Notes: a model not told the origin generated them from the letters alone. A stretch of 64,000 bases of DNA from Bacillota bacterium (GCA_023400985.1 JAEXEN010000019.1:1954-65953), one strand, 5' to 3'; positions 32,117 to 43,591 are shown, numbered from the stretch's first letter. Made by a program: numbers and translations.

Positions 32117-32206
32117 AAAATATATGGGATTTTAGAAAAAGGTATTGACTTGCCGCCGTCTCCGAGTGTTACATTTGCTATGGAGCAATACACAGGAGGA
32201 AGCGGC

Positions 32207-33214
32207 ATGCAAAAAGTCATCTTGGGAAGAACCGGGCTCACGGTGGGCAAAAACAGTTTTGGGGCGCTCCCCGTACAGCGCGTATCGCACGAGGAAGCGA
32301 TTCGCCTTTTGCGCAAGGCGTTTTTTGGCGGCATGAATTACTTCGACACCGCCCGCATGTACTCTGACAGCGAGGAAAAGCTCGGCGCGGCGTTTGAAGG
32401 CGTGCGCGAAAAGATCGTCATTAGCACCAAAACGGGCGCGGCGACTGCGGACGGGTTTGGGGCGGACCTTGCGATAAGTTTAAAAAACCTCCGCACCGAA
32501 TACATCGATATCTATCAGTTCCATAACCCCGATTTCTGCCCCAAACCGGGGGACGGGAGCGGGCTTTACGAGGCGATGCTCGAGGCGAAGGCGCAGGGGA
32601 AGGTGCGCTTTATCGGCATCACCAACCACCGCCTTAACGTTGCGCTCGAAGCCGTTGAAAGCGGCCTTTACGATACGCTCCAGTTCCCGCTAAGTTATCT
32701 TGCTTCCAAGGAGGATCTGGAGCTTGCGGAGGCTTGCCGCCGCCAAAATATGGGCTTTATCGCGATGAAGGCGCTTTCGGGCGGGCTCATCACCGATTCC
32801 GCGCTCGCTTACGCATACCTCGCGCAATTCCCGTTCGTTGTGCCCATCTGGGGCATCCAAAAGGAAGCGGAGCTCGATGAATTCCTTTCCTACAACGAAA
32901 ACGAACCCGAGCTGAACGAAGAAATGCTAAGGCAAATCGAAAAGGACCGCAGGGAGCTTGCGGGCTCGTTCTGCCGCGGTTGCGGCTATTGCATGCCCTG
33001 CCCCGTGGGTATCAAAATCAACAACTGCGCGCGCATGAGCCTCATGATAAGGCGTTCCCCAAAAGAGCCGTGGCTCACCGGAGAATGGCGTTCCAATATG
33101 GCGCAGATAGAAAACTGCCTCAACTGCGGGAAATGCGCATCGAAATGCCCGTATTCCCTCGATACGCCCTCGCTCCTTCGCGCGAATTACGAGGATTATA
33201 AAACCTTTCTTTAA
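32207..33214 (+). CDS. Aldo/keto reductase with a C-terminal Fe-S (ferredoxin-like) extension
   Basis: 'LGRTGLTVGKNSFGALP', 'YFDTARMYSDSE', then 'CRGCGYCMPCP' and 'CLNCGKCASKCP'. ATG 32207 follows GGAGGAAG. Confidence 0.8.
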   Translation: MQKVILGRTGLTVGKNSFGALPVQRVSHEEAIRLLRKAFFGGMNYFDTARMYSDSEEKLGAAFEGVREKIVISTKTGAATADGFGADLAISLKNLRTEYIDIYQFHNPDFCPKPGDGSGLYEAMLEAKAQGKVRFIGITNHRLNVALEAVESGLYDTLQFPLSYLASKEDLELAEACRRQNMGFIAMKALSGGLITDSALAYAYLAQFPFVVPIWGIQKEAELDEFLSYNENEPELNEEMLRQIEKDRRELAGSFCRGCGYCMPCPVGIKINNCARMSLMIRRSPKEPWLTGEWRSNMAQIENCLNCGKCASKCPYSLDTPSLLRANYEDYKTFL

Positions 33215-33278
33215 TACATGAAAATGGCGTGGGAATTTCAGCAGGACGAGTTGACGTGAATTTTTCCCTGCATCTGCA

Positions 33279-33306
33279 TTGACGGTGCGCGCCTGTGTGC
33301 TATAAT
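33279..33306 (+). promoter_or_regulatory. Candidate sigma-A promoter (extended -10)
   Basis: TTGACG, 16 nt, TGcTATAAT. Confidence 0.55.
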
Positions 33307-33360
33307 GGCACTTAGTGCGCCTAAAAAACTGCAATGCAAAGGAATCAAAGAGGATTTTCT

Positions 33361-35004
33361 GTGAAGTATTTCAAGGGATTTTCCGCCATGCTCGCACGCG
33401 AATTCAAGGGCTACAACGCGCAAAAACTCGGCAAGGATGTGCTTGCGGGCGTCACCGTCGCGGCGGTCGCGCTTCCGCTCGCGCTCGCGTTTGGCGTAAG
33501 CAGCGGCGCAAGCGCGGCGGCGGGCCTCGTGACGGCCATCGTGGCGGGCGTGGTGATAGGCTCTCTTTCGGGCGCGTCGTTCCAAATTTCCGGGCCTACG
33601 GGCGCTATGACGGCCATCCTCGTCTCGCTCGTAGCGCGCTACGGCATGCAGGGGGTGTTTATCGCCTGTGCTCTTTCGGGCGTGCTTCTCATCCTCGCCG
33701 GCGTTTTGAAGCTTGGCGACCTGGTCTCTTTCATTCCGCTGCCCGTCATCACGGGCTTTACTTCGGGCATCGCGGTGATCATCGCGCTCGGGCAGGTCAA
33801 CAACCTCACCGGCCTTACCTCCCAAGGCACCGAAACCGTGGAACGCATTTTGAGCTATTTCACCTTTGCGCAAAGCCTCAATCCTTATGCGCTTTTCATC
33901 GGCGCGGCGGTGATATTGTTCATGGCGCTGTACCCGAAAAAGTGGTCGGCGGTCGTGCCGGGTTCGCTCGCGGCCATTATCCTCGCCACGGCGGCAAACA
34001 CGATATTTTCGTTTCCCGTAAACGAGGTGGGAGAGATACCCAAAACCCTCCTGCTTAGCGAGCGCTTAACGTTTCAAAACTTTGATTTTCGCCGTGCGAG
34101 CGAACTGCTGATGCCCGCCGTGAGTATTGCGGCGCTCGGTATGATCGAAAGCCTTTTGTGCGGCGCTTCCGCCGGACGCATGAAGGGCGAAAAGCTCAAC
34201 GCGGGCGCGGAATTGATCGCGCAAGGCATTGGCAATCTCGTGCTTCCTTTCTTCGGCGGCGTGCCGGCTACGGCGGCCATTGCGCGCACGAGCGTCGCGG
34301 TGAAGGCCGGCGGGCAGACGCGCCTTGTAAGCGTCCTCCATTCCGCGGTGCTGCTGCTTTCCATGTTTGCGCTCGGCGGCGTCATGAGAAAAATTCCGCT
34401 GTGCGCGCTTGCGGGCGTGCTCATGGTTACGGCGTGGCGCATGAACGAGTGGCATGTAATCAGGGATATCTTCCGTAAGCGCATCGCGAGCGCCATGATG
34501 CAGTTTGGCGTTACCATGGCATGCACGGTGATGTTCGATCTCACCGTCGCCATCGTCGTCGGCGTGCTGTTTTCGGTCCTTACGTTCGTGGTGAAGGTAT
34601 CGCAGATGCAGATCACCGTGAGCGGCGTCGTGCCTGAAAAGCTTCCGGAATGCGCCCAAATGAAAGGGCATGAAGATACCGCCGTGGTCTATGTGAGCGG
34701 CCCGCTCTACTTCGGCTCCGTGCGCAGGCTTGAGGATTGCGTGAGAGAGGAGCTTAAAGGAAAGCGCCGCGTCATTTTCTCCATGCGCGGCGTACCGCTG
34801 GCGGATCTTTCCGCCGTGCAGGCGGTCACGGATTTGTGCAGGTCCATGACGGAGGGCGGCGCGCAAGTGTATTTTTCGAGCCTCCAGCCGAACGTGGAGC
34901 AGATGCTCGAAAAATGCGGCCTCAAGCACGCGGTGGGCGCGGACCGCTTCTATTGGAGCGTCGATCAGGCCATCAAGGGCATGGCGCAAGCGCCGGAATT
35001 TTAA
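33361..35004 (+). CDS. SulP-family anion transporter with a C-terminal STAS domain
   Basis: 'LAGVTVAAVALPLALAFGVSSG' and 'ELIAQGIGN' Sulfate_transp motifs, with a STAS-like tail. The start is uncertain (GTG 33361, ATG 33334 or ATG 33388). Confidence 0.85.
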   Translation: MKYFKGFSAMLAREFKGYNAQKLGKDVLAGVTVAAVALPLALAFGVSSGASAAAGLVTAIVAGVVIGSLSGASFQISGPTGAMTAILVSLVARYGMQGVFIACALSGVLLILAGVLKLGDLVSFIPLPVITGFTSGIAVIIALGQVNNLTGLTSQGTETVERILSYFTFAQSLNPYALFIGAAVILFMALYPKKWSAVVPGSLAAIILATAANTIFSFPVNEVGEIPKTLLLSERLTFQNFDFRRASELLMPAVSIAALGMIESLLCGASAGRMKGEKLNAGAELIAQGIGNLVLPFFGGVPATAAIARTSVAVKAGGQTRLVSVLHSAVLLLSMFALGGVMRKIPLCALAGVLMVTAWRMNEWHVIRDIFRKRIASAMMQFGVTMACTVMFDLTVAIVVGVLFSVLTFVVKVSQMQITVSGVVPEKLPECAQMKGHEDTAVVYVSGPLYFGSVRRLEDCVREELKGKRRVIFSMRGVPLADLSAVQAVTDLCRSMTEGGAQVYFSSLQPNVEQMLEKCGLKHAVGADRFYWSVDQAIKGMAQAPEF

Positions 35005-35478
35005 ATGAAGGAGCGTGCAGGCATGGACCCCGTTGTTTTATCCGTTCGCGAGAACCCGGCTTATCTTGACCGCGCGGTCGGTTACTTCTCCGAAAAATGG
35101 GGCATCGACCGCCGCGTATACGAGGATTCCATATCGTTTAGCCTCGATACTTCAAGCCCGCTTCCGCGCTGGTACCTTCTTATGGAGGGGGATACCATCA
35201 TCGGAAGTTACGGCCTTATCGCAAACGACTTTATCAGCCGGCAGGATCTTTGGCCGTGGCTTTGCGCGCTGTATGTGGAGGAAAGCGAGCGCGGAAAAGG
35301 CTATGGCGGGCTTCTTCTGGCGCACGGCCGGCGGGAGGCGGAAAAGCTCGGGTTCGGCAAGGTATACCTCTCCACCGACCATACCTCCTATTATGAAAGA
35401 TACGGCTGGAAATTCATCGGAATGGGATACGGCCCCTTCGGCGAATCCCGCATTTATGAGAACAGCTCAATTGAATAA
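35005..35478 (+). CDS. GNAT family N-acetyltransferase
   Basis: 'LYVEESERGKGYGGLLLAHGRREAEKLG' motif A. Confidence 0.75.
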   Translation: MKERAGMDPVVLSVRENPAYLDRAVGYFSEKWGIDRRVYEDSISFSLDTSSPLPRWYLLMEGDTIIGSYGLIANDFISRQDLWPWLCALYVEESERGKGYGGLLLAHGRREAEKLGFGKVYLSTDHTSYYERYGWKFIGMGYGPFGESRIYENSSIE

Positions 35479-36045
35479 AGCTTCCATCAATATATCGAGG
35501 TCTTTTCCCGTCCTCTCCACCACATCGTATCTGTAATCGTTTAAACACCAATCGAACAAACAGCCGCGCACGAACTTGATCAAAAGGTCCGCCGCGTATT
35601 CGGGCGTAAAGCCTTCCTTCAAATACGCCCGAGCCTCGTGCACGCGGCTCAAAACGGCCCTGTAATAGGCGCGGTCGGGGCTTGCGGCGAGGCGCGCGCT
35701 GTCGGTGAGGATGGTCCTGTAGTATTCGGCGGTGAGCGGTCCGGCCTCCCGCGCCACAAACTCCGTCTGCACCATCAGCACGGCGCGGACGCTTTCTAAA
35801 GGCGTTCCCGCGCGCGCGGGCAGAAATTCGCTCATGGAATCGTCAAAAAGCAAAAAGGAGCGGCTCATCAACTCGCTTTTTGAGGAAAAGTGATGATAAA
35901 ACGCGCCGATGGAAACGCCGGCTTCCTCGCAGATGCCTTTCACGCTCGTCTTTTCCCAGCCCATTTTTCGAATCAGGCGCATGGCTGCCTGCATGATGGC
36001 GGATACCGTTTTCGCGCTACGCTGCGCGTTGGTGTGAACGGACAT
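35467..36045 (-). CDS. TetR/AcrR family transcriptional regulator
   Basis: N-terminal HTH 'EKTSVKGICEEAGVSIGAFYHHFSSK'. Confidence 0.85.
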   Translation of the reverse strand: MSVHTNAQRSAKTVSAIMQAAMRLIRKMGWEKTSVKGICEEAGVSIGAFYHHFSSKSELMSRSFLLFDDSMSEFLPARAGTPLESVRAVLMVQTEFVAREAGPLTAEYYRTILTDSARLAASPDRAYYRAVLSRVHEARAYLKEGFTPEYAADLLIKFVRGCLFDWCLNDYRYDVVERTGKDLDILMEALFN

Positions 36046-36159
36046 AGATCATTCCTCCAATAATATGCTTCATCATATCACAGCATGGATTTCGGGAAAA
36101 CAGCTGTTTTTTCATGTTGCGGTTTTTTGCTTTTTTCAAGAGAAAAGAAGGAAAATGTA

Positions 36160-36223
36160 TTGTGACAGAATTAACGAAGTGATATAATACAACCAAAGAA
36201 AAACAGAATGGAATTCTGTTTTT
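36160..36223 (+). promoter_or_regulatory. Candidate promoter plus palindromic operator for the flavoenzyme/AcnX operon
   Basis: TTGTGA, 17 nt, TATAAT (36183-36188). A perfect 11-bp inverted repeat aaaaacagaat-gga-attctgttttt follows at 36199-36223. Confidence 0.55.
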
Positions 36224-36258
36224 GAGAACGCATTACTGTAATGAAGGAGCGTGGGCAC

Positions 36259-38532
36259 ATGAAAACCGATCCTTTGGTACAACGGCTTGTGGACAGCTAC
36301 GGCAGCTGGGTGTGCGACAAACAGGAAAACCGCGCGGGCGGCACGGGGCGTATGACCAAGGAGCTCTACCCCTACGACGCGATGTTTTCCCCTATCCGCA
36401 TCAACCGCGTTACCGTGAAGAACCGTCTCGTGATGGCGCCTATGGGCAACATCGATATGTGCGAGGAAACGGGCAGGCCAAACGACAAGATGCTGCAGTA
36501 TTTCTTCGCGCGGGCACGCGGCGGCGTGGGGCTCATCACGACCGGCCTCATCCCCATCAGCCACGGCGTGGACAGCACGGTGACGGAGCTTGGGAAGCTC
36601 AGCTATTTTCCGCGCATCGACCGCAGCCGCACCGTGTACGCGGGCTGGCGCGACCTCGCGCAGGGCGTCCACGCTTACGGAAGCAAGATATTCGTGCAGC
36701 TTACGGCGGGCTTAGGCCGCGTAGGCAACCCGCAATGCCTCATCAACGAATTGAAGTTTCCCGTTTCGGCCTCGTTCAACCCCAACTTCTACATTCCTCA
36801 GATACCGAGCGTGCGTCTTTCGGACGGCAAGCTTGAAAAGATCATCAAAAACGCGGGGCAGGCCGGCGCGGACGCGATGGCCGCGGGTTTGGACGGCGTA
36901 TATCTGCACGGGCACGAGGGGTATTTGCTGGAACAGCTTACCAACCCCGCCTTCAACCGCCGCAAGCTTGGCCGTTATGCGGACTATATGCGCTTTGGCA
37001 TAGACATGGTGAAGGAATTGAGAAGGCGCACGGACAAAGGCTTTCCCATCATGTACCGCATCGACCTTTCGCTCGCGCTCAACGAGACATACGGCGAAGA
37101 CGGTATGAACAACCCCGCGCTCAAGAAGTTCAAGAACGGGCGCACGGTGGAGGAAACGCTTGCCTATATGGACAAGCTCGTGGAAGCGGGCGTCGATATG
37201 TTCGACGTGGACCTCGGCTGCTACGATAACTGGTGGCTGCCGCATCCGCCTTCCGGCATGCCCGCGGGCTGCTTCCTCGAAGTGGCGCGCGCAGCGAAGG
37301 AGCACTTCGCCAAAAAGAACATACTTTCAAACGCCGGTCTCAGTGTGCCCGTCGTGGCCGTAGGCAAGCTCGGCTATCCGGATATCGCGGAGCGCGCATT
37401 GCGCGAGGGTGATTGCGATATGGTCATGCTCGGCCGTCCGCTCCTCGCCGATCCCGAATGGCCCAACAAGGCCTACGCGGGCAAGGTGGAGGATATCTGC
37501 CCCTGCATCGGCTGCCAGGAAGGCTGCATCAACGAGTTCGTGGAGGGCGGCCACCCGCAATGCGCCGTGAACCCCCGCACGGGCTTCGAGGACGTGCTGC
37601 CGCTTACGCTTCCCGCGGCGGATGTGAAAAAGCATGTGGCCGTCGTCGGCGCGGGCCCCGCGGGCGCAATGCTTGCCGCTGCCGCCGCAAAGCGCGGCCA
37701 CAAAGTGGAGCTTTTTGAAAAGACCGGCTCCCTTGGCGGCAGGATGGTACCGGGCGGTGTGCCCGCCGTGAAGTTCGATATCGAAAACTACGAGAAATAC
37801 CTCGGCCGCGTTGTGGGGGAAGCCGAAAAGAGCAACGGCCTTAAGGTGCATCTCAACACCGCGGTGAGCGTAGAGGAGCTCAAAAAGGCCAAATACGACA
37901 GCATCGTATTCGCCATAGGCACCAAAAACGTTTCGCCGAAGCTACAGGGAATAGAAAAGACGAATACCGTGCAGGCGGCTGATCTCCTCGTTGACGCTAA
38001 GCTTATCGGAGACGCCAAAAACGCCGTCATCGTGGGCGGCGGCGCGGTGGGCTGTGAAACGGCTTACTGGCTCAAATACGAGAAGGGTTTGAACGTAACG
38101 GTCGTGGATATGCTGCCGCACATGATGGACGGCGCATGCACCGCCAACCGCGGCCACCTCATCCATTACCTGAAGAAGGCGGGTGTAAAGCTCATCAACT
38201 GCGCGCGCGTTACCTCCTTCGGCGAGGGAACGGTAAACATTATGCGCAACGTTTCTGCGGGCGTGCCCGATCCCTACAACACATGGCAGCCCATTCTGCC
38301 CAAGAACATCGAAAACCCGCTCGCCAAAAAGATAGGCCCCGAAGAACGCGAGGAATCCCTTCAGGCGGACCTCGTGGTGCTCGCGATGGGCGGGCGTCCC
38401 GACGACGCTATGTTCCTTGAGGCGCAGGAAAAACACGCGGCGGACGGGCTCCACAACATCGGCGACAGCTTTGCGCCCGGCAGGATACTCGAGGCCACGC
38501 GCGCGGCCTACCGCCTCGCGATGACGTTATAA
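36259..38532 (+). CDS. OYE-like FMN / [4Fe-4S] / FAD-NAD(P) oxidoreductase of the 2-enoate reductase / 2,4-dienoyl-CoA reductase family
   Basis: 'VKNRLVMAPMGN', 'LHGHEGYLLEQL', Fe-S motif 'CPCIGCQEGC' and a Rossmann 'VAVVGAGPAGAMLA'. The start is uncertain (36241, 36259 or 36352). Confidence 0.8.
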   Translation: MKTDPLVQRLVDSYGSWVCDKQENRAGGTGRMTKELYPYDAMFSPIRINRVTVKNRLVMAPMGNIDMCEETGRPNDKMLQYFFARARGGVGLITTGLIPISHGVDSTVTELGKLSYFPRIDRSRTVYAGWRDLAQGVHAYGSKIFVQLTAGLGRVGNPQCLINELKFPVSASFNPNFYIPQIPSVRLSDGKLEKIIKNAGQAGADAMAAGLDGVYLHGHEGYLLEQLTNPAFNRRKLGRYADYMRFGIDMVKELRRRTDKGFPIMYRIDLSLALNETYGEDGMNNPALKKFKNGRTVEETLAYMDKLVEAGVDMFDVDLGCYDNWWLPHPPSGMPAGCFLEVARAAKEHFAKKNILSNAGLSVPVVAVGKLGYPDIAERALREGDCDMVMLGRPLLADPEWPNKAYAGKVEDICPCIGCQEGCINEFVEGGHPQCAVNPRTGFEDVLPLTLPAADVKKHVAVVGAGPAGAMLAAAAAKRGHKVELFEKTGSLGGRMVPGGVPAVKFDIENYEKYLGRVVGEAEKSNGLKVHLNTAVSVEELKKAKYDSIVFAIGTKNVSPKLQGIEKTNTVQAADLLVDAKLIGDAKNAVIVGGGAVGCETAYWLKYEKGLNVTVVDMLPHMMDGACTANRGHLIHYLKKAGVKLINCARVTSFGEGTVNIMRNVSAGVPDPYNTWQPILPKNIENPLAKKIGPEEREESLQADLVVLAMGGRPDDAMFLEAQEKHAADGLHNIGDSFAPGRILEATRAAYRLAMTL

Positions 38533-38552
38533 TGAGGGAAGGGGGGAATCGC

Positions 38553-39830
38553 ATGATGAACCTTACGCCTGAGCAGCAGGCGATACTGAACGGCAGTGAG
38601 GGCGAAGTCAAGGCGAAGGTCATGAAGACCCTCGTCATGTACGGCGAGACGTTCGGCGCGGAAAAGATGGTGAAAGTCACAAGCGAAAAGGGCCATCTGG
38701 TGACGTCCTTCGGCCTGTCCGTGATGAAGCCCGTGTTCTCTTTGATGCAGCAGCTTATCGACAGCGGCGCCGTAAGCGCGCAGGGCTTTACGGCCGATCC
38801 TCGTCCGCTCGATAAGAACGTGCCGCAAAGCCTCCTCCAAAAGATCGTGTTTTCCGTGATGTACGGCAGCCAGAAGAATTACGAGGAGCAGTTGCAGGCG
38901 CTTGGCCTTGTAGACGGCGATTCGTTCTCCTGCGCGTGCTATTTGAACGAGCAGGGCAACACGCCCAAAGAGGGCGAGGTCCTAAGCTGGGCGGAGAGCA
39001 GCGCCGTGGTGTATGCCAACAGCATTTTGGGCGCGCGCTGCAACCGCAATTCGGGTATCATCGAGCTTTTCGGCAGCATCGTGGGCTGCGTGCCCTATTT
39101 CGGACTTCTCACCGACGAGGGAAGGAAGGCCGACTGCCTTGTGGAGGTCAAGACCGACACGCTTCCCGAGGCGCAGATACTTGGCAGCGCCATCGGCATG
39201 AAGGCGATGGAGGACGTGCCCTACATCGTGGGGCTTGACCGTTTCTTTCCGGATGGGCTCACGGACAGCGCGCTTTCCTACTTCAAGGATATGGGCGCCG
39301 CCACCGCCTCCAACGGCGCCGTAGGCCTCTACCATGTGGAAAACCTCACGCCGGAGGCCAAGGCGCAGGGCCGCGCGCTTTTAAAGCAAACCGCAAAAAC
39401 CTATACAATCGACGAAGCCGAGCTTACGCGCGTACGCAACGGCTACCCCTGCATCTGGAAGGATAAGGACGCTTTACCCAAGCTTTGCTTCATCGGCTGC
39501 CCGCATCTTTCCTTCAACCAGCTCAACGAGTGGACCGAGCGTATTTCAAAAACCCTCAAGAAAAACGGCAAAAAGAAGGTGACGATCCCGACGGTAATTA
39601 CCACCGCGCCCGGCGTGAAGAAGGCGTTTGAAAGCACGCCCGCGTTTGAAACGCTCAAATCGACCGGCGCGATCCTCTCGGACATCTGCCCGCTCATGTA
39701 TATGAATAACCCCATGTGCAGCGGCATGCCCGTGATCACCAACTCCAACAAGACGCGCACCTACACAAGCGCGCGTTATCATACAGACGCGGAGACACTG
39801 AGCCTTATCACGGGAGGTGCAAACAAATGA
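38553..39830 (+). CDS. Aconitase X catalytic (large) subunit, DUF521
   Basis: 'MNLTPEQQAILNGSEGE' N-terminus and 'AESSAVVYANSILGARCNRNSG' are typical of DUF521/AcnX. Confidence 0.75.
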   Translation: MMNLTPEQQAILNGSEGEVKAKVMKTLVMYGETFGAEKMVKVTSEKGHLVTSFGLSVMKPVFSLMQQLIDSGAVSAQGFTADPRPLDKNVPQSLLQKIVFSVMYGSQKNYEEQLQALGLVDGDSFSCACYLNEQGNTPKEGEVLSWAESSAVVYANSILGARCNRNSGIIELFGSIVGCVPYFGLLTDEGRKADCLVEVKTDTLPEAQILGSAIGMKAMEDVPYIVGLDRFFPDGLTDSALSYFKDMGAATASNGAVGLYHVENLTPEAKAQGRALLKQTAKTYTIDEAELTRVRNGYPCIWKDKDALPKLCFIGCPHLSFNQLNEWTERISKTLKKNGKKKVTIPTVITTAPGVKKAFESTPAFETLKSTGAILSDICPLMYMNNPMCSGMPVITNSNKTRTYTSARYHTDAETLSLITGGANK

Positions 39831-40267
39831 AGACCTTCAAGGGACGCCCCGTCGTACAGGGGAAAGCAAAAGCCGAAGCGCTCGTGTCGCACAACGGGTT
39901 CAACACGCTTGCGAGCTTTCAAAAGGCGCTTTTGTCCAAGGATAAGGACGCCATATGCTCCGACCAGAACAACCCCGACATTTATAAAAAACCCATGCAC
40001 TTAAAGGCGCTCTGCCTGCCGCAGACCATTGGATCCACCACCGGCGGCATGATCCTCTATTGCGCGGCGGAACTCGGGCAGCAGCCGGCGTGTCTTTTGT
40101 TCTCCAAGCCTATCGATTCGCTCGCCGCGGCGGGGGCCATCCTCGCGGGCGTGTGGTCCGATAACCCCATGCCCACGGTTGACAGCCTCGGCGACGATTT
40201 CTTGGCCGCGGTGAAAACCGGCATGACGGTGACGGTGGAGGAAGATGGCACGGTAACGGTGGAGTAG
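39827..40267 (+). CDS. Aconitase X swivel (small) subunit, DUF126
   Basis: 'KGRPVVQGKAKAEALVS' and 'TIGSTTGGMILY' are typical of DUF126. The start overlaps the upstream stop (ATGA). Confidence 0.75.
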   Translation: MKTFKGRPVVQGKAKAEALVSHNGFNTLASFQKALLSKDKDAICSDQNNPDIYKKPMHLKALCLPQTIGSTTGGMILYCAAELGQQPACLLFSKPIDSLAAAGAILAGVWSDNPMPTVDSLGDDFLAAVKTGMTVTVEEDGTVTVE

Positions 40268-40296
40268 CTTTTTACGTAGGAGCTATAAGATCTGCA

Positions 40297-40553
40297 GTGG
40301 GTTAAGATATTCCTAAAATTGTAAACGGAAGGCGTTAAGGGACCAGGAGGGATGTCGCATTAAGCATTTGGGATGTTTCGCCTGCGGCGAAACCCCGGGG
40401 TTCTAAAAAGGCGTCACCGGCGCCTTTTTTGCCCCTTCGGGGCACCGAACCCGCTGTCACGGCGTAAACGCCGTGACAGCCCCCTTAGATCCCTTAACAA
40501 TCCCTTATCCTCCTTAAAACGGCCACTGCGTGGTGCTTTTGGGTAACGGGGTG
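40297..40553 (+). repeat. ~255-nt structured repeat element, copy A (second copy at 53296-53550)
   Basis: Collinear similarity to 53296-53550. Nested inverted repeats: gttaaggga/tcccttaac, gtttcgcc/ggcgaaac, gggttc/gaaccc, aaaaaggcg/cgccttttt and gctgtcacggcg/cgccgtgacagc. Confidence 0.65.
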
Positions 40554-41040
40554 TTGCGTAGGGGCCGGTCTCCGGACGGCCCGCCGTTTCTTTCCGGGGT
40601 ATATGCGGGGCGTCGGGGACGCCGCCCCCTACAAATGAAACGCTGATTCGCATATTGCCGCCAAGGCAACATCCCCGTAGGGACGGATATTATCCGCCCG
40701 CGGTAACCGCCATTACGGCTCGGGCCGATATGGAATGGGCCCTTACAAATAAAACGTTGATTTTCCGGTAAGGCGGGATGATTTTCATCCCGCCGCGTGT
40801 TATCGCCAAAGCAGCATATTCACGTAGGGGACGGGGTGGTTTATCTGCCAGCGGGGACGTAAAAACCACCTAGCAAATACGCGGGCGTCGTTGCGATCGT
40901 CGCAGTAATCCGGACTGTACCCCGTCATCGAGAGCGCAGCGCGGCGATCCGGTTTGACTTGCACCGGCTTCCGGATTGCTTCGTCGCTTCGCTCCTCGCA
41001 ATGACGGGGGAGGCGGCAACGCGGCGGTTCTTTTTTTTTA
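40554..41040. repeat. REP-like array of GC-rich hairpins, including a ~90-nt imperfect palindrome
   Basis: Units such as ggcgggatga-ttt-tcatcccgcc. A long hairpin at 40920-41009 (ccccgtcatcgagagcg...cgctcctcgcaatgacgggg) has a homolog at 53639-53810. Confidence 0.6.
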
Positions 41041-41046
41041 ATCCCA

Positions 41047-41754
41047 TCAATCCTCGTATATCTCCCGCGAACCTTCTATGGCCTCGCCTACGGAGCTTTC
41101 CACACATTTTATCGCGCCTTGCGCATCGCGCGAAACGATGAAGGCGTTCAGCCGCGCGGCGTTGCCGGATAACGATTCCTTGCCGTGCTTTCTTGCAAAC
41201 CGCGCCCATAGGTTTAAAATAGGGGCGCGAAAGGACCGGTAGATGAGCGGCGCGAACGTGTTGCCGCTCACGAGCGCGAGCTCGTGGTAATACCCGTATG
41301 CCGCCTCCGCCGTTTCCTCGGGGGTATTCGCTTCGTCGAATGCATGCAAACGCGCCGAGAGAATTTCTATATCCCCGTCCGGGGCGTTCGTCGCGGCCAG
41401 TTCCGCGGCGAGCCTGTCGAGTACGAGTTTGATCTGCAAAATGGAGCGCACCTCGTCGCGCCGCAGCCTGCCGCCGTTGTAGCGCATGATGGATAAAAGC
41501 GTATCCGCCGTGCCGTTTCGCCGAAAGTCCGATACGGTCGCGCCGATGCGGGGGCGTATCTCCACAAAGCCCTTCTGCTCCATTTCGCTCAAGCCTGCGT
41601 TCACGACCGCGCGGCTTACCTGCATGGCTTTTGCGAGCTCCCGCTCGGGCGGCAGCTTTGTGCCTACTGATAGCTTGCCCGAGAGGATCATACCCTCGAG
41701 CTCCTGTACGAAAAGCTCTTTGAGCGACGGCGCGCTCAGCCTGGGAAATTGCAT
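41047..41754 (-). CDS. GntR-family (FadR/FCD subfamily) transcriptional regulator
   Basis: 'LPPERELAKAMQVSRAVVNAGLSEMEQKGFVEIRP' wHTH and a helical FCD-like C-terminus. ATG 41754 lies 7 nt after GGAGG. Confidence 0.85.
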   Translation of the reverse strand: MQFPRLSAPSLKELFVQELEGMILSGKLSVGTKLPPERELAKAMQVSRAVVNAGLSEMEQKGFVEIRPRIGATVSDFRRNGTADTLLSIMRYNGGRLRRDEVRSILQIKLVLDRLAAELAATNAPDGDIEILSARLHAFDEANTPEETAEAAYGYYHELALVSGNTFAPLIYRSFRAPILNLWARFARKHGKESLSGNAARLNAFIVSRDAQGAIKCVESSVGEAIEGSREIYED

Positions 41755-41772
41755 ATCTTTGCCTCCAATCAT

Positions 41773-41783
41773 TGGTTCAGCCA
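41773..41783. promoter_or_regulatory. Candidate GntR/FadR operator, site 1
   Basis: TGGTTCAGCCA fits the FadR-type TGGT-N3-ACCA pattern. It is adjacent to the gntR start. Confidence 0.45.
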
Positions 41784-41875
41784 CATACCAAAAATATTTT
41801 AGCATTGTTTTTGTGGAAATTCAAGTTTGCGAGAATGCCGAAAAAGGCAAAAATGCAGGGGGATCATGCGTTGTA

Positions 41876-41926
41876 TTGACGAATAAATAACAAAATGTTA
41901 CACTACAGGTAAATCTGGTTCAACCA
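41876..41926 (+). promoter_or_regulatory. Candidate promoter plus GntR/FadR operator site 2 for the membrane-hypB-oxidoreductase-hypA operon
   Basis: TTGACG, 17 nt, TACACT (41899-41904), then the perfect palindrome TGGTTcAACCA at 41916-41926. Confidence 0.55.
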
Positions 41927-41958
41927 ATTCATATCTTTGTGCATTTGGGAGGTTCAGC

Positions 41959-42870
41959 ATGTTTTTGTTCGAGGCGATCCCTTGGTACACTTGGTTGATG
42001 CTTCTTGCCGTAACGGGCGGGCTCATTTTGCTCAACGAGTTTTCTCGCGTCAGCAAATGGACGGCGCTTTTGTGCTTTGCGGTACTCCCGCTTGTTTTGA
42101 CCATATTTGTATGGCCGAATACCGCGGGTGCGGACTCGAGCACGGGCACTTGGTTCCACTGGGTTAAGGTATACTCGGCGCTTGCGGGCTGTTTGGGATT
42201 TTTGCTCATCCGTATGTCCAAAAAAGTGGAGCAAAGCAAGTTCCGCGTCATTTTCCCGCCGCTCATACTCGCCATCAACATACTTGAAGCATGCGTGCGC
42301 GACTTCCAGTGCTTCAGCCTCAACGGCATCGTGGACGGCGTAATGATGGTGGGCGGGCCGTGGAACATCATGAACGGCATAGCGGGTATTTTGAACATCG
42401 CTACCATTACGGGCTGCATGGGCATCTATGTAAGTAATGACAAGCGGCGCGATATGATGTGGCCCGATATGCTCTGGTTCTGGGTGATCGCCTACGATAT
42501 ATGGAACTTCGCCTACGTCTACAATTGCGTGAGCGATCACTCCTTCTACGCGGGCGCGGCGCTTTTGATCGCTCCCACGCTGGCCGCGTTTCTCATCAAA
42601 AAAGGCGCATGGCTCCAGCATAGGGCGCACACCCTCGCGTTTTGGATGATGTTCACCATGGCGTACCCAACGTTTGTGGACGGCACCATCTTCTCGGTAA
42701 AGTCGAGCCATGACCCCGTTGCGCTCTTTATCGTGAGTACAATTGCGCTTGCCGCTAACGTCGCGGTGCTCGCGTACGCAATATACCGCATGAGAAAGTA
42801 CAAGCTCAACCCCCTCAAGCAGGAGATATATACCGATTTGAAGGTATATGCGGAAGTTGCGGCGAAATAA
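41959..42870 (+). CDS. Hypothetical polytopic membrane protein (about 8 TM)
   Basis: Hydrophobic throughout, with a good RBS (GGGAGG). I recognise no transporter signature. Confidence 0.55.
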   Translation: MFLFEAIPWYTWLMLLAVTGGLILLNEFSRVSKWTALLCFAVLPLVLTIFVWPNTAGADSSTGTWFHWVKVYSALAGCLGFLLIRMSKKVEQSKFRVIFPPLILAINILEACVRDFQCFSLNGIVDGVMMVGGPWNIMNGIAGILNIATITGCMGIYVSNDKRRDMMWPDMLWFWVIAYDIWNFAYVYNCVSDHSFYAGAALLIAPTLAAFLIKKGAWLQHRAHTLAFWMMFTMAYPTFVDGTIFSVKSSHDPVALFIVSTIALAANVAVLAYAIYRMRKYKLNPLKQEIYTDLKVYAEVAAK

Positions 42871-42900
42871 ACCGCATCGAATTTCCAAAGGAGAACTGCT

Positions 42901-43581
42901 ATGGATAACTTCAAGATCATCACCATCAAGCAAAGCGTGTTTGAAAGCAACGACCGCGACGCGGAGCTTCTTCGCGGCGAGCTCAGGGAGAAAGGCGTTT
43001 ACCTTCTCAACCTCATGTCGTCGCCCGGGGCGGGGAAGACCACCGTACTCAAAAATACCATTCACGCTTTGAAGGGAAATTTCCGCATCGGCGTGATGGA
43101 GGCGGATATCGATTCCGACGTGGACGCCCGCACCATAGAGACGACCGGCGCGAGGGTCATACAGCTCCACACGGGCGGCATGTGCCATCTCGACGCGGAT
43201 ATGACGCGGCAGGGGTTGCACGGCCTTACGACCGACGCGCTCGACCTCATCTTTTTGGAGAACGTCGGCAACCTCGTATGTCCCGCGGAGTTCGACACGG
43301 GCGCAACGAGAAACGCCATGATCCTAAGCGTACCCGAGGGCGACGATAAGCCTTTGAAGTACCCGCTCATGTTCACCATCTGCGACGCGCTTCTCATCAA
43401 TAAGATCGACGCCGCCGCGCTGTTCGACTTCGACTTTGAAGCCTGCTCCGCGCGCGCGAAAAAGCTCAACCCCAACATTCAAATTTTCCCCGTTTCCGCC
43501 AAGACCGGCGAGGGGATGGACGCGTGGTATGCATGGTTAAAAAACGAGGTCAATACCTACCGCGGCACGCTCAAAAAATAA
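42901..43581 (+). CDS. hypB: Nickel-insertion GTPase HypB
   Basis: P-loop 'SSPGAGKTTVL', 'ENVGNLVCPAEFDTGA' and 'LINKIDAA'. Confidence 0.9.
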   Translation: MDNFKIITIKQSVFESNDRDAELLRGELREKGVYLLNLMSSPGAGKTTVLKNTIHALKGNFRIGVMEADIDSDVDARTIETTGARVIQLHTGGMCHLDADMTRQGLHGLTTDALDLIFLENVGNLVCPAEFDTGATRNAMILSVPEGDDKPLKYPLMFTICDALLINKIDAAALFDFDFEACSARAKKLNPNIQIFPVSAKTGEGMDAWYAWLKNEVNTYRGTLKK

Positions 43582-43591
43582 CGGAGGCAGC

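Follow-up and report, generated by a model that had tools for sequence, protein, structure and literature searches.

We analyzed a 64,000-nt stretch of DNA from a Bacillota bacterium, a gut-type anaerobe (GCA_023400985.1 JAEXEN010000019.1:1954-65953), hereafter the window, with all positions counted from its first letter. The operon under study, at 35467-40267, pairs a putative ene-reductase, an Fe-S flavoenzyme of the old yellow enzyme (OYE) type, with the two subunits of an aconitase X (AcnX) dehydratase, beside a divergent gene for a TetR-family repressor. On balance, we read the operon as a substrate-inducible three-gene unit for the two-step reductive removal of a β-hydroxyl group from an organic acid. 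The locus contains the following features.

35467..36045, minus strand: tetR, TetR-family repressor gene, 192 aa, divergent from the operon (PF00440, TetR_N, E 2.7e-15)
36097..36110, no strand: palindrome no. 2, AAAACAG/CTGTTTT, with the outer half-site in common with the operator; the identical 14-mer occurs elsewhere in the locus of the closest relative (L001) only
36160..36188, plus strand: promoter-like site, TTGTGA-17 nt-TATAAT with extended TG, 10/12 matches
36199..36223, no strand: predicted operator, 11-nt inverted repeat AAAAACAGAAT-GGA-ATTCTGTTTTT, spanning the expected transcription start
36259..38532, plus strand: Fe-S flavoenzyme of class A (defined below), 757 aa, putative ene-reductase (PF00724 E 8e-38, PF07992 E 1e-24)
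38553..39830, plus strand: AcnX large (catalytic, DUF521) subunit (PF04412 E 4.4e-92; best solved relative TkAcnX, 7cnr_A)
39827..40267, plus strand: AcnX small (swivel, DUF126) subunit, 146 aa (PF01989 E 1e-8; 7cnr_B match)
40405..40430, plus strand: intrinsic-terminator-like hairpin with an 11-bp stem, a 3-nt loop, and a U run (-24.7 kcal/mol over a 56-nt stretch, z -2.3)

A first-pass annotation of the window had described most of this layout. The divergent TetR gene and the two AcnX subunits are borne out by their Pfam matches, the proposed translational coupling of the large and small subunits by the ATGA junction at 39827-39830, and the perfect 11-bp inverted repeat by arms (36199-36209 and 36213-36223, spacer 3 nt) that are 100% complementary. 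Of the 750-aa OYE/[4Fe-4S]/FAD enzyme, the architecture stands and the length has to be corrected: the open reading frame (ORF) is open from 36241 (763 aa), and a ribosome-binding site (RBS), GAAGGAG, precedes the ATG at 36259, which gives 757 aa. The ORF of the large subunit is open already at 38532, in a TAATG overlapping the reductase stop. However, a start at this TAATG is improbable. The RBS GGGAAGGGGGG and alignments of homologues mark ATG 38553 or 38556, about 20 nt past the reductase stop, as the most probable start codon. Given this gap of about 20 nt between the reductase and AcnX genes, overlap coupling is limited to the large and small subunits. The hairpin and U run at 40405-40430 are predicted to close the operon. 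No transporter or ligase is encoded within the operon, as the annotation had stated; a SulP permease sits outside, upstream. Rfam gives zero matches in window 35000-42000, including the operon leader and the long downstream spacer, and a riboswitch is therefore unsupported.

The closest solved structure to AcnX is that of the archaeal mevalonate-5-phosphate dehydratase TkAcnX (7cnr), with E 3.6e-41 for the large subunit and E 4.9e-7 for the small subunit (7cnr_B). Large-subunit residue numbers count from 38532, and residue roles are taken from Watanabe et al. 2021 (PMC8184944) on TkAcnX and AtAcnX. For comparison, we define a clade as the loci with an AcnX large subunit at least 55% identical to that of the window, collected in two scans of species-representative genomes; invariance refers to an alignment of the window with the own-clade sequences of the first 72 loci. 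Residues C134, C323, and C386 of the large subunit align to C110, C283, and C342 of TkAcnX and are invariant in the clade. This three-cysteine pattern is of the archaeal type and, by homology, implies a [4Fe-4S] cluster. Residues E155-S156-S157, K407, and Y411 are also clade-invariant, and E155, S156, K407, and Y411 align to Tk E129, S130, K361, and Y365. In the small subunit, the invariant GSTTG motif holds the catalytic Ser70 at the position of Tk Ser62, with S70-T71 kept. The clade alignment shows no variation at any position where TkAcnX or AtAcnX contacts the cluster, the carboxylate, or the C3-OH. AcnX thus appears equipped for α,β-elimination, with a serine base, a Lewis-acid cluster, and binding of a free carboxylate and C3-OH as in the solved enzymes. 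C134 is also the first residue of a C-x-C at large-subunit 134-136 (window 38931-38939); C136 is nearly invariant in the clade and common in bacterial sister clades, and its position is Pro in both solved AcnX enzymes.

The substrate tail, in contrast to this machinery, would face residues of neither characterized type. With respect to AtAcnX, Asp203 is replaced by V57 and Ile206 by F60 in the large subunit, and Trp35 by small-subunit L28 (via the equivalence to Tk L27); among the landmarks Asp203, Trp35, Ile206, and Thr72, only small-subunit Thr72 is conserved. With respect to TkAcnX, the phosphate residues are replaced, clade-invariantly: G48-V49-S50 by T58-S59-F60, N53 by S63, and N79 by D89. 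The predicted tail pocket, comprising H55, V57, T58, S59, F60, and D89 of the large subunit and T72 of the small subunit, is invariant, and a clade-typical Arg409 lies two residues past the catalytic lysine. The pocket would be small and partly hydrophobic (V57, F60, and small-subunit L28), also with His55, Asp89, and Arg409. The AcnX pair does not fall with the known cis-3-hydroxyproline dehydratases, a grouping that the first-pass annotation had named as counting against its proposal: the NCBIfam model of the hydroxyproline enzyme, NF051439, scores 141 bits against a cut-off of 700, and Asp203 and Ile206 have given way to Val and Phe. Archaeal-type sequences carrying the Tk motifs (phosphomevalonate-dehydratase-like) are only 28% identical to the window AcnX.

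AcnX therefore appears to possess the full catalytic and cluster set without the residues that define cis-3-hydroxyproline or mevalonate-5-phosphate specificity. As the tail pocket is unlike that of both characterized AcnX types, the substrate is predicted to be new. It is probably a small acid without an α-heteroatom, because a product with an α-heteroatom would tautomerize and would need no ene-reductase. In the bacterial subclasses IIc-IIf, the landmarks of both activities are missing and the function is stated to be unknown (PMC8184944); the clade fits this account, with which it was compared by description only.

The reductase comprises an OYE FMN barrel, a four-cysteine [4Fe-4S] motif, and FAD and NAD(P)H folds (two dinucleotide folds). 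Its CIGCQEGC...C motif and GxGxxG folds align to FadH (1ps9), the former to the FadH cluster cysteines. The closest solved relatives are FadH (2,4-dienoyl-CoA reductase, the best match) and 2-naphthoyl-CoA reductase; TMADH and histamine dehydrogenase are also detectable as relatives. The Tyr of the HEGY motif is conserved, and FadH His252 is replaced by Tyr. The enzyme scores 310 bits against BaiCD (cut-off 825) and 309 bits against BilR-long (cut-off 750), and the class-B reductases described below, with 331-358 bits, are likewise under the BaiCD and BilR cut-offs. The earlier assignment to the 2-enoate reductase/FadH/Bai-type family is thus upheld, with the refinement that the window reductase appears, from these matches, to be an Fe-S flavoenzyme of that family outside every named equivalog.

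The reductase accompanies AcnX well beyond the window. The clade comprises at least 120 loci in species-level genomes of gut, rumen, and digester anaerobes, with carriers mostly labelled Spirochaetota, Oscillospiraceae, and Erysipelotrichaceae. An OYE/Fe-S/FAD flavoenzyme is adjacent in 89 of the 120 loci, and in 56 of the 70 that are well flanked (at least 3 kb on both sides). These flavoenzymes are not one orthogroup. Class A, to which the window enzyme belongs, comprises 31 sequences (median 757 aa) that share at least 55% identity with one another, carries a 38-aa N-terminal extension and a C-terminal insertion, and lies directly upstream of AcnX on the same strand in 30/31 loci. Class B (median 684 aa, mutual identity at least 50%) is less fixed in its placement and is found on both sides of AcnX and on either strand. 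Between the two classes, identity does not exceed 32%, and one locus has a third type. Well-supported branches of the AcnX tree force at least three switches of partner class, and the AcnX active site is the same with class A and class B partners. One role thus appears to be filled repeatedly by non-orthologous reductases, and such repeated replacement argues against chance linkage.

Co-occurrence extends to genomes in which the genes are apart. Five genomes with AcnX and no reductase within 6-7 kb were tested, and 5/5 hold a class-B orthologue elsewhere (58-82% identity). A set of 41 genomes, made up of the own genome and 40 relatives, includes ten with AcnX of this clade, and every one of the ten has a class-A or class-B reductase as well. 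The other 31 are AcnX-negative; six of these still have a reductase orthologue, although in one case the contig is truncated. Because the AcnX genomes hold a reductase in 5/5 and 10/10 cases and the reductase stands alone in 6/31, AcnX appears to depend on the reductase, and not vice versa. The co-conservation in other genomes that the first-pass annotation had proposed as a test is strongly seen, both as adjacency (89/120) and as co-occurrence (10/10).

With the own genome set aside, the clade is present in 2/5 relatives of the same genus, 9/24 of the same family, and 0/16 from other families of the order, and one same-genus AcnX copy is only 66% identical. This patchy distribution fits the pattern of an accessory, transferable, inducible trait, a view that agrees with the local TetR regulator. 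Five loci from metagenome-assembled genomes of one study (L020, L028, L031, L039, and L041), labelled Sphaerochaetaceae, Selenomonadaceae, Phocaeicola massiliensis, and Coriobacteriaceae, share near-identical synteny (PGM, Lnb, NhaC, AcnX, reductase, RecJ, RecO) and form one tight clade of the AcnX tree; the pattern points to mis-binning or very recent transfer.

We clustered all ORFs of 122 loci and annotated about 60 recurrent ones by Pfam. Recurrent neighbors are housekeeping genes (RecJ, RecO, PheST, MnmA, PGM, AdhE, enolase, and glycogen genes) or sporadic transporters, and the largest other neighbor cluster reaches 13/72 loci in the first set and 13/54 in the second. In 120 loci, no ligase, CoA-transferase, dehydrogenase, thiolase, or dedicated permease is conserved next to the module, and no hydroxyproline (Lhp-type) genes are found among the neighbors. 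With no other conserved neighbor, the module is therefore self-contained.

Only two kinds of transporter stand in suggestive places. In two loci (L025:2967-4358 and L035:3500-4891), the gene for an SNF-family sodium symporter separates the AcnX genes from the reductase gene. In three others (L010:2355-3644, L016:4651-5943, and L022:3388-4683), a Xan_ur (NCS2) permease gene immediately precedes AcnX, and an isochorismatase-family gene is near. The Sphaerochaetaceae group has NhaC and an SBP. Upstream of the Diplocloster reductase there is an ORF of 327 aa that appears not to be a real gene. In the AcnX-less relatives L128 (623-8090) and L131 (793-8116), a class-B reductase is the last gene of a tight operon with a ParA-like ATPase and two HGD-D (2-hydroxyacyl-CoA-dehydratase-like) subunits, to which L131 adds a BcrAD/BadFG-type activator and a CdhC-like protein. 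Parts of the HGD-D block lie beside AcnX in L124 (11545-15275) and beside a class-A reductase in L086 (7954-9089). These arrangements weakly suggest that different dehydratases feed one reductase.

A sister AcnX clade from Rhodococcus/Rhodococcoides (L074-L076; 47% identity, loop T-H-V-V-T-S-M-G) has a divergent LysR gene and an MFS (Sugar_tr-type) acid transporter, with no Fe-S flavoenzyme adjacent. Downstream in L075 are a luciferase-like monooxygenase, an isochorismatase-family hydrolase, and a Zn-ADH; isochorismatase and ADH ORFs also occur in L076. For the sister clades P0010 and P0007, no relative was found in the genome collection.

The TetR control that the first-pass annotation had proposed is supported by phylogenetic footprinting of the predicted operator. 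The TetR protein is below every NCBIfam equivalog cut-off, and orthologues with 45-86% identity hold the same divergent position in seven other loci. All 8/8 TetR-bearing loci (the window and these seven) contain ACAGAAY-N3-RTTCKGT, with constant half-sites and three central bases that vary between loci. In the window, the inverted repeat starts 11 nt downstream of the promoter-like site, and in the seven related loci the motif sits 5-11 nt past a -10-like box. In 837 kb (72 loci plus the window), the pattern occurs nowhere outside the eight TetR-bearing places, including in clade members without a TetR gene. Such conservation is what one would expect of a site at which a dimeric repressor binds over the transcription start. 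TetR may also control its own promoter through palindrome no. 2 at 36097-36110. Among solved TetR proteins, the nearest (AcrR, NalD, Bacillus/Thermus FadR, and KstR2) are weak matches, with E ~1e-8, and point to no ligand.

These features can be combined into a route. Without inducer, a TetR dimer on the palindrome covering the transcription start would block the promoter. The AcnX heterodimer, with a predicted [4Fe-4S] cluster on its three cysteines, would bind the carboxylate and C3-OH of a free 3-hydroxy acid; as judged from the conserved residues, the small-subunit serine would take the C2 proton, and water would be expelled to give the 2-enoate. In the second step, the flavoenzyme would use NAD(P)H to reduce this double bond, yielding the saturated acid. 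Clostridial enoate reductases with this architecture take 2-enoates as substrates, in the form of free acids. The reduction would pull the reversible dehydration forward, making it irreversible, and regenerate oxidized pyridine nucleotide, providing a fermenter with an electron sink. The enoate itself is probably available in the habitats, since the reductase also occurs alone, and with AcnX a cell could use the hydrated form as well. The dehydratase/ene-reductase pathway put forward in the first-pass annotation is thereby supported, as residues, family, and co-conservation all hold. We only infer the co-transcription of the operon, the order of the two reactions, and the substrate.

Several points weigh against this reading. 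An adjacent reductase is wanting in 14 of the well-flanked loci. Close-kin genomes are not independent samples, and the co-occurrence figures are counts, not statistics. The class-B reductase occurs with HGD-D subunits in two AcnX-less genomes, and the reductase is therefore not dedicated to AcnX. The reductase is found without AcnX but AcnX never without the reductase, an asymmetry also compatible with the reductase acting first. In addition, FadH-type relatives of the reductase act on CoA thioesters, so that the enzyme might rely on a CoA ligase or transferase encoded elsewhere.

The last two points lead to other schemes. If the order is reversed, the flavoenzyme would reduce a dienoate or activated alkene and AcnX would hydrate the 2-enoate to a 3-hydroxy acid for catabolism. 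Dehydration and hydration of the AcnX type are reversible, the best solved relative of the reductase, FadH, takes 2,4-dienoyl substrates, and the reductase is found alone while AcnX is not, as for a downstream enzyme. However, no dehydrogenase, thiolase, or other follow-up enzyme is conserved by the module in the 120 loci, and a two-enzyme route to an excreted saturated acid explains a self-contained module more simply; we regard the reverse order as unlikely. Activation to a CoA thioester is a further scheme, in which AcnX yields the free enoate, an unlinked ligase or transferase activates it, and the flavoenzyme reduces the thioester. It has analogues in E. coli carnitine metabolism (Cai) and in clostridial 2-hydroxy-acid routes, it would suit a reductase whose closest solved relatives are FadH and 2-naphthoyl-CoA reductase, and it recalls the operons of L128 and L131, where a class-B reductase accompanies HGD-D-type subunits and, in L131, a BcrAD activator. 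Yet a CoA ligase or transferase is conserved near none of the 120 loci, and clostridial 2-enoate reductases of the same architecture are established to take free acids, which leaves a CoA-level route improbable.

Two alternatives concern the substrate of AcnX. The only characterized bacterial AcnX enzymes are cis-3-hydroxy-L-proline dehydratases (PMC5144071, PMC8184944), and AcnX could dehydrate a similar cyclic amino acid, with the flavoenzyme reducing the enamine or imine to proline or a homologue. Conservation of Thr72, the ring-nitrogen ligand in AtAcnX, an invariant Asp89 near the substrate tail, and the relation of the reductase to TMADH and histamine dehydrogenase, which work on C-N bonds, would be consistent with this scheme. 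But Asp203, essential in AtAcnX (the Ala mutant is almost inactive), is Val here, Ile206 and Trp35 are Phe and Leu, the NF051439 score is far under its cut-off (141/700 bits), and no hydroxyproline genes are near. In addition, the carriers, by their labels Spirochaetota, Oscillospiraceae, and Erysipelotrichaceae, are taxa that we take to be mainly sugar fermenters. Such a hydroxy-imino-acid route has, in our judgment, a small chance of being correct. A bacterial mevalonate-5-phosphate dehydratase of the modified mevalonate pathway, with the reductase a mere neighbor, is effectively excluded: although TkAcnX is the best solved match (E 3.6e-41) and the three-cysteine pattern is archaeal, the phosphate contacts are lost (N79 to Asp, N53 to Ser, and G48-V49-S50 to T-S-F), and true phosphomevalonate-dehydratase-like sequences, with the Tk motifs, are only 28% identical. 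Moreover, no UbiD-family decarboxylase (PF01977) was found in the own genome (96.4% complete), whereas control genomes matched, and the distribution among relatives is patchy.

The preferred reading, β-dehydration by AcnX followed by reduction, relates to known systems as follows. Like AcnX of type IIb (Thermococcus kodakarensis TK1249/TK1248, PDB 7cnr/7cns; Aeropyrum pernix PMDh), the window enzyme has two subunits (DUF521 and DUF126), the three cluster cysteines, the Glu-Ser-Ser, Lys, and Tyr of the large subunit, and the catalytic Ser-Thr of the small subunit. It differs in its identity of only about 30%, in the replaced 5-phosphate residues, in the lack of a UbiD partner in the genome, and in being an accessory gene of a bacterial host tied to an ene-reductase. 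With AtAcnX it shares the fold, the carboxylate/C3-OH/general-base machinery, and Thr72, whereas the match to cis-3-hydroxyproline dehydratases reaches only E 1e-19 to 1e-21, the Asp203/Ile206/Trp35 set has become Val/Phe/Leu, there is no hydroxyproline gene cluster, and the third cluster cysteine follows the archaeal pattern instead of that of At Cys510. The flavoenzyme resembles clostridial 2-enoate reductases, FadH, BaiCD, BaiH, and BilR in its OYE barrel, four-cysteine [4Fe-4S] motif, FAD and NAD(P)H folds, and HEGY Tyr; it differs from them in its scores far under the equivalog cut-offs, the class-A extension and insertion, and the His252 to Tyr change.

In carnitine metabolism (CaiD, CaiA) and bile-acid 7-dehydroxylation (BaiE, BaiCD/BaiH), a substrate is dehydrated and the C=C bond is then reduced as an electron sink. 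The logic proposed for the AcnX/reductase pair is the same, but the Cai and Bai dehydratases are unrelated (crotonase and SnoaL-like folds) and act on CoA thioesters, whereas here an Fe-S AcnX would act on a free carboxylate. The AcnX subclasses IIc-IIf are likewise bacterial, two-subunit, and without the landmarks of both known activities, and a link to an ene-reductase goes unmentioned in their description (PMC8184944). The main text and one supplementary file of a survey of gut Fe-S flavoenzyme gene clusters (PMC7371122) contain no AcnX. A full-text literature search for AcnX paired with an enoate reductase or flavin oxidoreductase, and for 2-enoate reductase in gut gene clusters, found no report, and the top-ranked titles and abstracts on AcnX, DUF521, and DUF126 contain no pairing with a reductase.

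Both enzymes come from known superfamilies, and their logic is known from the carnitine and bile-acid routes. What appears to be undescribed is an AcnX of new specificity serving as a free-acid dehydratase, in a putatively obligate partnership with an Fe-S flavoenzyme. New here are the operator footprint, the two orthogroups with their partner switches, the asymmetry of co-occurrence, and the HGD-D lead. AcnX sequences form roughly 1,800 representative clusters, yet no other branch of the aconitase superfamily is understood so poorly, with two known activities and four bacterial subclasses without assigned function. The presence of the clade in at least 120 species-level genomes marks a common, undescribed metabolic capacity of gut, rumen, and digester communities. 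If the substrate were found, AcnX would gain a third assigned function, a dehydration-reduction route free of CoA would be defined as an electron sink, and a known gut transformation without assigned genes might receive them. For experiments, the system offers a self-contained three-gene unit, a 25-bp predicted operator, a repressor that should respond to the substrate or product, and cultured carriers (Diplocloster agilis, D. modestus, D. hominis, and Collinsella massiliensis).

A broader and speculative idea, which we think has a modest chance at best, is that the pair could be the missing CoA-independent system for one of the reductive dehydroxylations of the gut and rumen microbiota that have long been known yet lack genes, with the reductase as a shared hub. 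AcnX would feed the reductase from β-hydroxy acids and, in other genomes, an HGD-D-type dehydratase would feed it from α-hydroxy acids. Candidate conversions would be L-carnitine to γ-butyrobetaine, citrate/aconitate to tricarballylate, 3-hydroxybutyrate/3-hydroxypropionate to butyrate/propionate, and 3-hydroxy-3-arylpropionates to arylpropionates.

Other genes flank the operon on both sides. Upstream, window 32150-35478 encodes a 354-aa protein that joins an aldo/keto reductase to a 4Fe-4S dicluster domain, then a SulP/STAS anion permease and a GNAT acetyltransferase. The SulP/STAS and GNAT genes are convergent with the TetR gene and are kept in L001 only, and the 3' ends of the GNAT and TetR genes overlap by 12 nt. 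Downstream, about 600 bp of non-coding DNA (window 40431-41046) with many G+C-rich hairpins separates the operon terminator from a GntR gene; within it, the word CGTAGGGGNCGG recurs, a perfect inverted repeat of 13 nt spans 40453-40480, and Rfam gives no match. Window 41047-46324 is a separate unit with a GntR/FCD regulator gene on the minus strand. Divergent from it, three genes on the plus strand encode DUF5692 (303 aa, E 7e-138), a CobW/HypB-like GTPase of 226 aa, and a GltD/YgfK-type oxidoreductase of 910 aa (Fer4, Fer4_20, and Pyr_redox_2). The GntR gene adjoins the operon in L001 too.

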